This document shows, one piece after another, positions 18,570 to 20,484 of a stretch of 36,219 nt of DNA (positions are counted from its first letter, which is position 1; each line of letters begins with the position of its first letter). Both the position numbers and the translations under genes were made by a program. Below the pieces are notes generated by a model that made no database searches, was not told the DNA's origin, and was given only the letters and a program-made list of their open reading frames with translations. Origin of the DNA: a virus (lineage: Duplodnaviria > Heunggongvirae > Uroviricota > Caudoviricetes); the IMG/VR virus record IMGVR_UViG_2571042636_000009; one strand, given 5' to 3'.

Positions 18570-18785
18570 ATGAAATCCATGGATAAGTTAACAACGGGCA
18601 TCGCCTACAGCACCTCTGCAGGCAGTGCTGGCTACTGGTTTTTACAGTTGCTCGATAAAGTCACACCCTCACAGTGGGCGGCAATAGGTGTATTGGGTAG
18701 TCTGGTATTTGGCATGCTGACGTATCTGACAAACCTTTATTTCAAGATTAAAGAAGACAGGCGTAAGGCTGCGAGAGGAGAGTAA
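18570..18785 (+). CDS. essQ: Class II holin, S21-type pinholin, with dual-start motif (MKSMDK)
   Basis: 71 aa, [71 protein letters not shown]; two TMDs and a charged C-terminus; GGAGGTGAGG RBS; recognised as S21/EssQ-like. Confidence 0.85.
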
Positions 18786-18789
18786 GACA

Positions 18790-19008
18790 ATGACTAAAAA
18801 CTATGAACTGATTGTGAAAGGGACCCGCAATTTTGAGAATAAAGTTACGGTAATCTTAACGTTACAGGACAAAGAACGTTTTGCCGGTGAAATTTTTGAT
18901 CTGAACATCAACCTTGAGCGACTTGAAGGAGCTGGTTTGGATTATTATGAAGTTACTGCGGTAAAACATGCCAAACAGTTCTTGAGAGATTTGGCTGAAA
19001 AAATATAA
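18790..19008 (+). CDS. Hypothetical protein (72 aa) between holin and endolysin
   Basis: ORF starting 5 nt after the holin stop, with an RBS-like GAGGAGAG; no family recognised. Confidence 0.5.
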   Translation: MTKNYELIVKGTRNFENKVTVILTLQDKERFAGEIFDLNINLERLEGAGLDYYEVTAVKHAKQFLRDLAEKI

Positions 19009-19032
19009 AGCGGCATTACTGCCGCTTAGAAA

Positions 19033-19329
19033 TTATTCAATGTCTGGTAGCTTATCAAAGATTTCGGATACTCTTATATTTGTCATATAAGCAAATTGAG
19101 ATTCTGCCAGCTCTTTGGGTGATTTTCCCGCTTTTTCTGAGCCAAAAATTGTTTCTAAAGCCAGCATGTTATATTTGAGAACCTCTTCTCGAGTTTTACC
19201 TGATAATTTTGCGGTAACAGCAATATAAAAAGGCAACACTTTATCCAGAAGGTCGTTGTGTTTTGTCAGTTGTGGTAATACCACATCAAGTTGCTTACTG
19301 ATTGGTTTGAATGGATCTATACCGTTCAT
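19033..19329 (-). CDS. Hypothetical protein (98 aa), opposite strand within the lysis cassette
   Basis: Clean minus-strand ORF convergent with the 72-aa gene; could correspond to the Qin ydfR position, but I do not recognise the sequence. Confidence 0.45.
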   Translation of the reverse strand: MNGIDPFKPISKQLDVVLPQLTKHNDLLDKVLPFYIAVTAKLSGKTREEVLKYNMLALETIFGSEKAGKSPKELAESQFAYMTNIRVSEIFDKLPDIE

Positions 19330-19456
19330 AGTTACATTCCCTTATCAGAGGTAATCAGCCATCCCCCCTTTATTACACACGCCAGTATCCACCACTGACG
19401 GGCTGAGTGCTTAACATATCTAGAGATTAGAAACTGATAAATCCTGATAAATATCC

Positions 19457-19990
19457 ATGAATGCTAATATCAAATACGGCCTGTCAGCAGCCGTTCTGGC
19501 GCTGATTGCTGCAGGCGCGTCTGCTCCTCAAATACTCGACCAGTTTCTGGACGAAAAAGAAGGTAACCACACAGCGGCATACCGCGATGGTTCCGGCATA
19601 TGGACCATCTGTCGGGGGGCCACGGTGGTGGATGGAAAACCCGTTTTTCCCGGTATGAAACTGTCGAAGGAAAAATGCGACCTGGTTAACGCCATTGAAC
19701 GTGATAAGGCGCTGGCATGGGTGGAGCGCAATATAAAAGTTCCACTGACCGAGCCACAGAAAGCCGGTATCGCGTCATTCTGTCCCTATAACATTGGCCC
19801 TGGTAAGTGTTTTCCGTCGACGTTTTATAAGCGGCTTAATGCCGGTGATCGTAAAGGCGCATGCGAGGCGATTCGCTGGTGGATAAAGGACGGTGGACGT
19901 GATTGCCGCATTCGTTCAAATAATTGTTACGGTCAGGTTATTCGTCGTGACCAGGAGAGTGCATTAACCTGCTGGGGGATAGAACAGTGA
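19457..19990 (+). CDS. rrrQ: Phage lysozyme (T4-lysozyme-like muramidase) with N-terminal SAR signal-anchor domain
   Basis: 177 aa; N-terminal Ala/Gly-rich weakly hydrophobic segment ([16 protein letters not shown]); catalytic E-D-T spacing ([19 protein letters not shown]); follows the pinholin. Confidence 0.85.
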
Positions 19991-20484
19991 ATCAGATATT
20001 CACGGTGATTTTGCTCGTGTTGGTAGGATTTGTCGTAGGTAATATCTGGAGCGACAGAGGATGGCAAAAAAAATGGGCGGAGCGTGATGCTGCCGAATTA
20101 TCTCAAGAGGTAAATGTCCAATTTGCTGCTCGAATAATTGAACAGGGGCGAACTATATCCCGAGATGAGGCTGTTAAAGATGCACAACAGAAAGCCGCTG
20201 AAATTTCTGCCAGGGCTGCTGATCTGTCTGATAGTGTTAACCAGCTGCGTGCCGAAGCAACAAAATATGCCATACGCCTTGACGCAGCGCAGCATACCGC
20301 AAATCTTGCCGCTGCCGTCAGAGGCAAAACAACCAAAGCCGCCGAAGGAATGCTCACCAACATGCTCGGAGATATTGCAGCAGAAGCTCAGCTTTATGCT
20401 GAAATTGCTGACAAACGCTATATCGCAGGAGTGACTTGTCAACGGATTTATGAATCTTTAAGAGATAAAAAATATCAGATGTAG
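19987..20484 (+). CDS. Rz i-spanin
   Basis: 165-aa ORF overlapping the lysozyme stop; N-terminal TMD ([15 protein letters not shown]) and coiled-coil-like remainder; contains an embedded +1-frame lipoprotein ORF. Confidence 0.8.
20165..20434 (+). CDS. Rz1 o-spanin lipoprotein, embedded in Rz in the +1 frame
   Basis: Signal peptide with lipobox ([11 protein letters not shown]) followed by a Pro-rich segment ([23 protein letters not shown]). Start could be 20165 or 20180. Confidence 0.7.

Follow-up and report, generated by a model that had tools for sequence, protein, structure and literature searches.

The lysis region at positions 18570-20484 of a 36,219-nucleotide (nt) tailed-phage sequence (IMG/VR record IMGVR_UViG_2571042636_000009; this whole stretch is referred to as the window) belongs to a lambdoid Escherichia coli prophage and forms a lysis cassette of the Qin type, composed of an S21-like holin gene, ydfR, a gene for a lysozyme of the signal-anchor-release (SAR) type and an Rz/Rz1 spanin pair. 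A recombination hot spot with at least seven alternative contents extends from the conserved N-domain of ydfR to the start codon of the lysozyme gene. In the window, it carries an antisense gene of 98 amino acids (aa) that converges with a 72-aa form of ydfR and that, judged from its sequence, has the anatomy of a moron, with a putative sigma-70-like promoter, a structured 5′ leader, a Shine-Dalgarno (SD) sequence, an open reading frame (ORF) under selection and its own terminator. The predicted promoter and leader are common to approximately 23 unrelated families of small antisense ORFs, among the matches listed, in the late operons of phages from E. coli and Salmonella. Supported by covariation, absent from Rfam and present on dozens of unrelated small prophage genes, the leader is the main lead to come from this work. 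Taken jointly, the interpretation of the region as a Qin-type cassette with a polymorphic slot, filled by a compact AT-rich convergent pair in which the antisense gene is a moron encoding a lysogen-phase factor, is judged probable.

A preliminary description of the region had called a cassette with a pinholin, a SAR endolysin and embedded spanins, in which two extra genes were inserted between holin and endolysin. All features of that cassette were recovered where they had been placed (PF04971, PF00959, DUF2514 and the LTSC lipobox), and both the 72-aa plus-strand gene and the convergent 98-aa minus-strand gene are present and genuine. The term insertion does not suit the 72-aa gene, which is ydfR, the standard Qin occupant. 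The profile searches and the comparison of holin-endolysin junctions that had been proposed placed the 72-aa protein in DUF1327 (92 bits) and the 98-aa protein end to end in phrog_25324, and found ydfR to be regular in related prophages and the slot to be polymorphic with seven contents. The two ORFs do not lack conservation, given the DUF1327 match and a ratio of nonsynonymous to synonymous substitution rates (dN/dS) of 0.08 for the 98-aa gene, and in homologous phages they are known as ORFs and not as lysis components. The 98-aa gene adds to the known class of morons, the cassette and ydfR being already known; the cassette is mostly ordinary, with the usual ydfR and one more moron, and offers no new lysis mechanism.

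The slot between ydfR and the lysozyme gene

The 72-aa gene is an allele of ydfR that encodes only the N-domain, and it is the normal occupant of this position. Its start codon lies 4 nt past the holin stop codon, with the same spacing in K-12, and the holin gene ends 8 nt before the ydfR start in 86 of the 87 loci that have a YdfR N-domain. Of 5426 complete E. coli genomes, 3643 contain ydfR DNA. The 72-aa protein spans only positions 1-72 of the 93 in the PF07041 profile (92.3 bits, cut-off 25) and aligns to residues 1-72 of K-12 YdfR, with 58% identity over the shared domain. Conservation among YdfR alleles is limited to the first ∼70 residues and the C-termini diverge. Cronobacter and three further lineages retain the 72-aa length, with 31-67% identity. 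Its structural model has a beta-beta-beta-alpha arrangement, with a predicted local distance difference test score (pLDDT) of 80. Residues 1-72 of K-12 YdfR are reported to bind RNase G as well as the catalytic N-terminal half of RNase E, and RNA to co-purify with YdfR (PMC13232886, 2026); a screen cited in the same paper linked ydfR to envelope integrity. By alignment, the window allele appears to correspond exactly to this RNase E-binding domain, with nothing beyond it. Literature searches on ydfR, DUF1327, essQ/rrrQ and morons found that paper alone to bear on YdfR.

DUF1327 may understate how widely small YdfR-N-like proteins occur in late operons. A 70-aa ORF directly after a tape-measure gene (locus L109, 5029-5241, minus strand) has a weak likeness to the YdfR N-domain (hhalign probability 23%). 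Some of the ORFs found behind the leader described below, a 67-aa family starting MKFKVDV..., also look beta-beta-beta-alpha by eye.

The distances from the ydfR start to the lysozyme start are 308, 370, 414, 667 (window), 688, 873 and 1259 nt, with YdfR lengths of 103, 104, 116, 72, 114, 183 and 268 aa, respectively, and one further locus carries an insertion sequence (IS). Four slot types have a minus-strand ORF adjoining the lysozyme gene, and these ORFs are mutually unrelated (Table 1); no homology was detectable between the 98-aa family and the other three proteins. A minus-strand block, CATGGATATTTATCAGGATTTATC[AG]G...GATATGTT, which runs from the lysozyme start codon, is common to the four types with an antisense ORF, and the shorter slot types resemble progressive deletions of this shared block. 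At this hot spot, the ydfR-endolysin junction, no fewer than four unrelated antisense genes swap behind one shared, putative promoter. A prophage in strain VCSW8 that is 99.3% identical to that of the window over 15 kb has a different slot content and lacks the 98-aa gene. A polymorphic toxin/immunity system was considered and rejected, as the 183-aa and 268-aa YdfR proteins have no toxin-like Pfam or PHROG match and the window allele has no C-terminal extension.

The window slot type was found in 62-71 of the 5426 E. coli genomes, and the 98-aa gene itself in 62, so that it is missing from ∼98% of the genomes that carry ydfR. Phage Evi and 71 complete E. coli genomes (at least 80% of a 2.2-kb query) have the whole arrangement. 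Two other copies of the region are disrupted: ydfR is frameshifted in the otherwise 99.3%-identical VCSW8 prophage (L118, 17554-17771), and an IS3-like element lies inside the lysozyme gene in one IMG/VR locus (L037, 3309-4757). In the window slot type, the lysozyme start (19440-19459) has neither an SD sequence (…CTGATAAATATCCATG) nor the ydfR stop/start overlap seen in K-12, so endolysin translation may be weaker or differently coupled.

The 98-aa antisense gene

The 98-aa ORF is a genuine gene under purifying selection. Its product matches phrog_25324 over residues 1-98 of 98 (E = 7e-61), and no Pfam family matches it. The dN/dS value given above was obtained against the Cronobacter homologue; for the other homologues synonymous sites are saturated and nonsynonymous differences per site (pN) are 0.21-0.30, and a length of 97-100 aa is kept down to 56% identity. 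The family is small, with 16 clusters in a set of 5.8 billion proteins and 6 representatives in one of 1.84 billion, and a weak wider match to a eukaryote-like FF/LRR protein was judged spurious. That both ORFs are decayed remnants or annotation artefacts of a cryptic prophage is scarcely credible. IS elements are present in the window prophage, the VCSW8 ydfR is frameshifted and the 72-aa protein covers 72 of the 93 positions of its Pfam model, but the reading is already contradicted by the conservation data, which include the dN/dS of 0.08, the 72-aa length maintained in Cronobacter and three lineages at 31-67% identity, and an identical arrangement in phage Evi, a complete 40-kb phage record.

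The AlphaFold model of the 98-aa protein consists of four helices (pLDDT 86) and the protein is predicted to be soluble; hydropathy analysis found no hydrophobic segment in it. Comparisons by fold and against PDB, Pfam and PADLOC gave no informative match, and sequence searches of PDB returned nothing significant. A search of PADLOC-DB 2.0 (E ≤ 0.1) gave no match for the 72-aa protein, the 98-aa protein, a partner from the second family described below or the three alternative antisense ORFs. A literature search on the 98-aa family found nothing.

Morons are defined by a promoter and terminator of their own, a deviant GC content, and presence or absence among relatives (PMC3594210; Juhala et al. 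2000). The 98-aa gene has its own terminator and a deviant base composition, the GC fraction being 0.355-0.405 over positions 18700-19400 (ydfR-72 and the 98-aa gene) against 0.47-0.49 in the holin gene and 0.53 in the lysozyme gene. It is also variably present, with seven slot variants, a 99.3%-identical prophage without the gene, and 62 versus 3643 genomes. The complement of the terminator U-tract encodes the last codons of ydfR and overlaps its stop codon, and the hairpin is kept with altered bases in two other loci (L113 and L115). No T-run follows the hairpin on the plus strand, so it should stop only the antisense transcript. A promoter-like site upstream of the leader is conserved across unrelated cargo ORFs and contexts.

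The antisense unit is oriented head-on into the late operon, and many related modules have an antisense ORF that shares 4-41 nt with the 3′-end of the sense gene. The transcript rather than the protein might then be active, either as an antisense RNA on the polycistronic late mRNA of the resident phage or of a related incoming one, or by dampening leaky expression of endolysin and downstream genes through transcriptional interference. There is a precedent in STnc6030, an antisense RNA of prophage BTP1, in which such nesting couples a function to the lysogeny/lysis switch (PMC7067206). For the window gene this is very improbable, as purifying selection acts at the protein level (dN/dS 0.08, with the length of 97-100 aa kept to 56% identity) and the overlap with ydfR comprises the terminator U-tract only.

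A structured leader shared by unrelated antisense genes

Comparison of the ∼85 nt before the start codon in 11 independent contexts revealed a conserved leader with four elements (Table 1). The first, TCAGCC, is nearly invariant, with one context reading TCGGCC, and in 10 of the 11 contexts a TAnnnT hexamer lies 6-9 nt upstream of it. It is followed by an 8-bp hairpin, a variable stretch of ∼19 nt, an invariant GGCTGA(T) that is complementary to TCAGCC, and the SD sequence. The leader is conserved despite saturated synonymous sites in the ORF. RNAalifold predicts that TCAGCC pairs with GGCUGA and that the hairpin is stacked on that helix. A second hairpin (GGGG/CCUC around a GGCUGA loop) was dropped, with 70% of cells paired and no compensatory changes. 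No Rfam family matches the leader (19330-19420, E ≤ 5), and no other copy of it was found in the window, in K-12 Qin or upstream of borD.

IMG/VR was scanned with an exact pattern that included the TCAGCC and GGCTGA words. This gave at least 119 matches, while a scrambled control of the same composition gave 0. Eighty matches were fetched, and in 78 of these an ORF of 64-99 aa starts within 70 nt downstream. Among the matches listed, to which the following counts also refer, the 78 ORFs fall into ∼23 unrelated clusters, which include a DUF1883 family, several PHROGs without a function and many clusters without any family. Nearly all are antisense to adjacent large tail genes, and 56 of the 78 have a small convergent partner, often overlapping at the 3′-end. 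In 58 distinct leaders, 97.4% of cells in the hairpin are paired compared with 18-41% in slid controls, and compensatory changes occur at 6 of the hairpin's 8 base pairs; the alignment had been fitted to the model, and the observed score was reached by 0 of 500 shuffles. Neither the shared leader nor the partner rule was found described in the literature, to which access was limited. If the leader confers common regulation, it would provide a simple sequence handle for the lysogen-expressed 'dark matter' genes of enterobacterial prophages.

The convergent pair in other late operons

Thirty loci with a homologue of the 98-aa gene were fetched, together with one distant metagenomic relative (L119). 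In all 30 loci and in L119, the gene is antisense in a phage late operon and has a small convergent sense partner 2-35 nt away. The partner is of two kinds, either a 71-72-aa YdfR-N-like protein, with identity to the window protein down to 31%, or a member of a 93-99-aa family that starts MTLKFQVGFP.... The pair has moved as a unit among at least 12 places in the late operons of Enterobacterales phages. On the lysis side, these include the Qin-type holin-endolysin slot and a position after an Rz fragment in a Cronobacter prophage. In tail operons, the pair lies between the genes for the tape-measure protein (TMP) and gpM, gpM and gpL, or gpI and gpJ, and it was also found directly upstream of S21-type, lambda-S-type and other holins (three holin types). 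As the contexts differ widely and the partner is always present, the pair is a mobile module and not an insertion specific to lysis regions.

A recurring sequence precedes sense partners of different families in L123, L125, L130, L133, L141, L149 and others, and reads ...AERQEK/AERRE... if translated from upstream starts. Because it precedes the sense partners, both ends of the module seemingly have conserved non-coding flanks, and such conserved flanks of two-gene modules are possibly recombination handles.

The preliminary description had suggested that the two genes modulate lysis timing, in which case YdfR-72, the 98-aa protein or both would adjust holin or endolysin in the manner of factors that resemble antiholins or regulate endolysins. 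In its favour, ydfR is fixed 4 nt past the holin stop codon and the stop codon of K-12-type ydfR overlaps the lysozyme start, which argues that K-12-type ydfR is co-expressed with the lysis genes. Homologous modules also lie directly upstream of holins in L096, L115, L117 and L119, and the screen cited in PMC13232886 ties ydfR to envelope integrity. However, such a role is improbable because the same pair occurs among tail genes distant from the lysis genes (TMP-gpM, gpM-gpL and gpI-gpJ). Neither the 72-aa nor the 98-aa protein has a membrane segment, 21-type cassettes function without ydfR, and the antisense gene is missing from ∼98% of ydfR-bearing genomes, while experimental data on YdfR point only to binding of RNase E and RNA (PMC13232886). 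Nothing links either gene to the timing of lysis, and the other suggestion made at that stage, another small accessory module, fits the minus-strand gene and its moron anatomy.

Possible role of the pair

If the antisense gene is a lysogen-phase moron, the 98-aa protein would be made in the lysogen, at a time when the late operon is silent and the antisense unit is driven by a promoter of its own, and the base-paired 5′-end would stabilise the antisense mRNA. After induction, head-on Q-modified late transcription would read through the one-directional terminator and shut the antisense unit off, and the late-expressed partner, YdfR-72, would then appear. The 98-aa protein would thus be an accessory or regulatory factor of the lysogen phase and no component of the lysis machinery. 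The preferred guess as to its activity, made with low confidence, is a lysogen-phase accessory or defence-like role with self-immunity mediated by the partner.

Several observations weigh against a lysogen-phase moron that depends on its leader and partner. The promoter, a putative one read from the sequence, scores 8 of 12 and escaped a consensus scan. For the single leader sequence, the folding energy does not stand out (z = +0.77). Covariation is no test of the outer TCAGCC/GGCTGA helix, as this helix is invariant, and the pattern used in the wide scan imposed it. Among the matches listed, 22 of the 78 leader-driven ORFs (28%) have no small partner, so an obligatory partnership is unproven, and the YdfR-N-like and 93-99-aa partner families have no detectable homology (hhalign probability 0.7%). 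In addition, an IS4-family element sits between the Q antiterminator gene and the lysis cassette, and for this reason the window copy may not be expressed normally, its late transcription possibly being impaired.

The 5′-end of the leader is base-paired in the predicted structure, and a base-paired 5′-end is a known shield against 5′-end-dependent decay by RNase E. This would suit a defence or toxic factor with a self-immunity partner like Tha/Ith, in which the 98-aa protein of the lysogen blocks superinfection or restrains late functions and, once the resident prophage is induced, the late-expressed partner and head-on transcription together neutralise it. Members of the 98-aa family are accompanied by a convergent partner in all 12 contexts, 56 of the 78 leader-driven ORFs listed have a small one, and the architecture matches the tha/ith 'noncontiguous operon' (PMC11087260). 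Residues 1-72 of K-12 YdfR, for their part, bind RNase E's catalytic domain and co-purify with RNA (PMC13232886). A pair of this kind is nevertheless unlikely, since no component matches PADLOC, no toxin-like or nuclease-like domain was found, the two partner families are not homologous and 28% of the leader-driven ORFs listed are without a small partner.

Beyond the window, the promoter and leader (TAnnnT, TCAGCCC, covarying hairpin, GGCUGA and SD) might mark an undescribed class of exchangeable antisense mini-genes that act as lysogeny-ON/lysis-OFF switches, a proposal put forward tentatively. The class would comprise at least 23 protein families, including the original HK022 morons, in late operons of temperate Enterobacterales phages and usually with a partner on the late strand; their functions could be, for example, those of defence or host-modulating factors with built-in self-immunity. 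The base-paired 5′-end would shield the mRNA from RNase E in the lysogen, and YdfR-N, a late-made RNase E binder, would help to remove the mRNA or protein after induction. If true, regulation through the shared leader would give the YdfR-RNase E interaction a biological context.

Lysis genes and neighbouring features

The window represents a lambdoid E. coli prophage that occupies the Qin site, with 99-100% identity to chromosomal segments beside ynfF-rspA in many strains. The holin matches PF04971 over profile positions 1-63 of 64 (117.6 bits, cut-off 26), and phrog_9876 and phrog_20, both 'holin', also match it. Its N-terminus, MKSMDK, has the pattern expected of a dual start (Met1 and Met4) for antiholin and holin. 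The hydropathy profile includes one strong segment (windows from residues 36-40; transmembrane domain at approximately 36-54) and a weaker N-terminal one rich in Gly, Ala and Ser. The lysozyme is of the glycoside hydrolase 24 type with the triad E35-x8-D44-x5-T50 present. Residues 8-25 are 61% Ala, Gly or Ser with a Kyte-Doolittle maximum of 2.05, and this N-terminus is consistent with a SAR domain. The predicted Rz1 lipoprotein has the lipobox LTSC, a Pro-rich mature part and a match to phrog_11621 'Rz-like spanin' (E = 5e-8), and in K-12 rzoQ is annotated at the equivalent position.

The YbgA-family and AraC-family genes between Q and the holin gene resemble further accessory genes. In the unrelated metagenomic phage L119, a YbgA-like gene occupies the corresponding position, with Q on one side and the convergent pair on the other. 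Downstream of the cassette, the Rfam cspA thermoregulator gave a partial match at 20701-20900 on the plus strand (44.5 bits, clipped by the search range), before the prophage cold-shock gene cspI (20844-21059); no other Rfam hit in the region was notable.

Table 1. Features of the lysis region, its surroundings in the window and the antisense ORFs of the slot.
Feature	Position	Strand	Description
Q-family antiterminator	13697-14089		Upstream of the cassette
IS4-family (ISVsa5/IS10-like) transposase	14598-15806	+	Inserted in a lipocalin-family gene (15775-16107, -)
YbgA-family gene	16300-17259	+	Between Q and holin
AraC-family regulator	17657-18379	+	phrog_1450; between Q and holin; own terminator
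Terminator-like hairpin	18448-18479	+	7-bp stem 18448-18469, then TTTTCTTTTT; after the AraC-family gene, ∼90 nt before holin
S21-type holin (pinholin class)	18570-18785	+	71 aa; PF04971 'Bacteriophage P21 holin S', E = 2.3e-34
72-aa ydfR allele	18790-19008	+	PF07041 (DUF1327), 92.3 bits
Intrinsic terminator of 98-aa gene	18998-19027	-	8-bp GC-rich stem AAGCGGCAGTAATGCCGCTT, then TATATTTTTT; directly after the stop codon
98-aa antisense gene	19033-19329	-	phrog_25324; convergent with the 72-aa ORF
Conserved 5′ leader of 98-aa gene	19330-19406	-	Four elements, from alignment
Leader SD, AAGGGA	19343-19338	-	
Leader GGCTGA	19360-19355	-	
Leader 8-bp hairpin	19400-19380	-	
Leader TCAGCC	19406-19401	-	
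Promoter-like site of 98-aa gene	19413-19440	-	TTATCA, 16 nt, TATGTT; ∼17 nt from the lysozyme start codon
SAR-type endolysin, rrrQ-like lysozyme	19457-19990	+	PF00959 (83 bits); phrog_7 'endolysin'
Rz-type i-spanin, rzpQ-like	19987-20484	+	DUF2514 (PF10721), E = 3.6e-38; phrog_312 'Rz-like spanin'
Rz1-type o-spanin lipoprotein, rzoQ-like	20180-20434	+	+1 frame, wholly inside Rz, offset 193 nt
Slot antisense ORF, window type			98 aa; phrog_25324
Slot antisense ORF, alternative			90-92 aa; phrog_2411
Slot antisense ORF, alternative			86-88 aa; phrog_2572
Slot antisense ORF, alternative			104 aa; phrog_1853

Comparison with known systems

K-12 Qin has the gene order essQ-ydfR-rrrQ-rzpQ/rzoQ, with ydfR directly after the holin gene, and its products share 92% (holin), 95% (lysozyme, RrrQ) and 90% (Rz) identity with those of the window. 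Both prophages lie at the same chromosomal site by ynfF-rspA, with cspI, ynfQ, ynfN and gnsB downstream of the cassette. However, K-12 YdfR is 103 aa long, its stop codon overlaps the lysozyme start and there is no antisense gene, whereas the window YdfR ends at residue 72 and is followed by 448 bp that include the antisense unit. In phage 21 and DLP12, too, the holin is a dual-start PF04971 protein, the lysozyme is of SAR type and the spanins form an embedded pair. The preliminary description had noted that in phage 21 the holin gene is followed directly by the endolysin gene. This is so in DLP12, where essD runs straight into rrrD without ydfR, but these cassettes form a separate lineage.

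Pore-forming colicin operons carry an immunity gene on the opposite strand, with its own promoter, between an SOS-induced or late-expressed gene and the lysis gene. Only the layout, a small opposite-strand gene beside a lysis gene, is alike, as no toxin domain was found in any C-terminal extension of YdfR and the window allele has no extension.

The Tha/Ith genes of Staphylococcus aureus prophages form a 'noncontiguous operon' (PMC11087260), with a gene that is antisense inside a phage operon and has its own promoter, and opposite-phase expression couples activity to lysogeny or lysis. Host, proteins and location differ, and in that system the repressor operon carries the defence gene, the small antisense gene acting as inhibitor. 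The window pair, known from its genes, would be comparable in architecture.

An antisense gene in a late lysis region had been regarded as unusual, but this view does not hold. In DLP12, the moron borD lies on the opposite strand directly after the spanin genes; it differs from the window gene in this position, in encoding a lipoprotein and in lacking the leader. HK022 genes 22/23 and ES18 genes 24/25 are closer, as each consists of a small sense gene convergent with a small antisense gene in a late operon. HK022 gene 23, annotated 'srb protein; moron gene product', overlaps the convergent moron gene 22 between gpI and gpJ; a literature search on the meaning of 'srb' found nothing. In ES18, gp25 and gp24 (annotated 'possible moron') converge between gpM and gpL; gp24 is a DUF1327/YdfR-N protein homologous to the window 72-aa protein (E = 3e-8). 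Both pairs are at tail-operon sites and not in a lysis cassette, and neither antisense protein is related to the 98-aa family. However, HK022 gene 23 and ES18 gp25 have the same promoter and leader as the window gene (TCAGCCC, hairpin, GGATGGCTGATTACCTCTG and SD; HK022, L241, 2460-2580; ES18, L242, 2001-2075) and their own terminators. The window architecture therefore belongs to the elements for which the term moron was coined.

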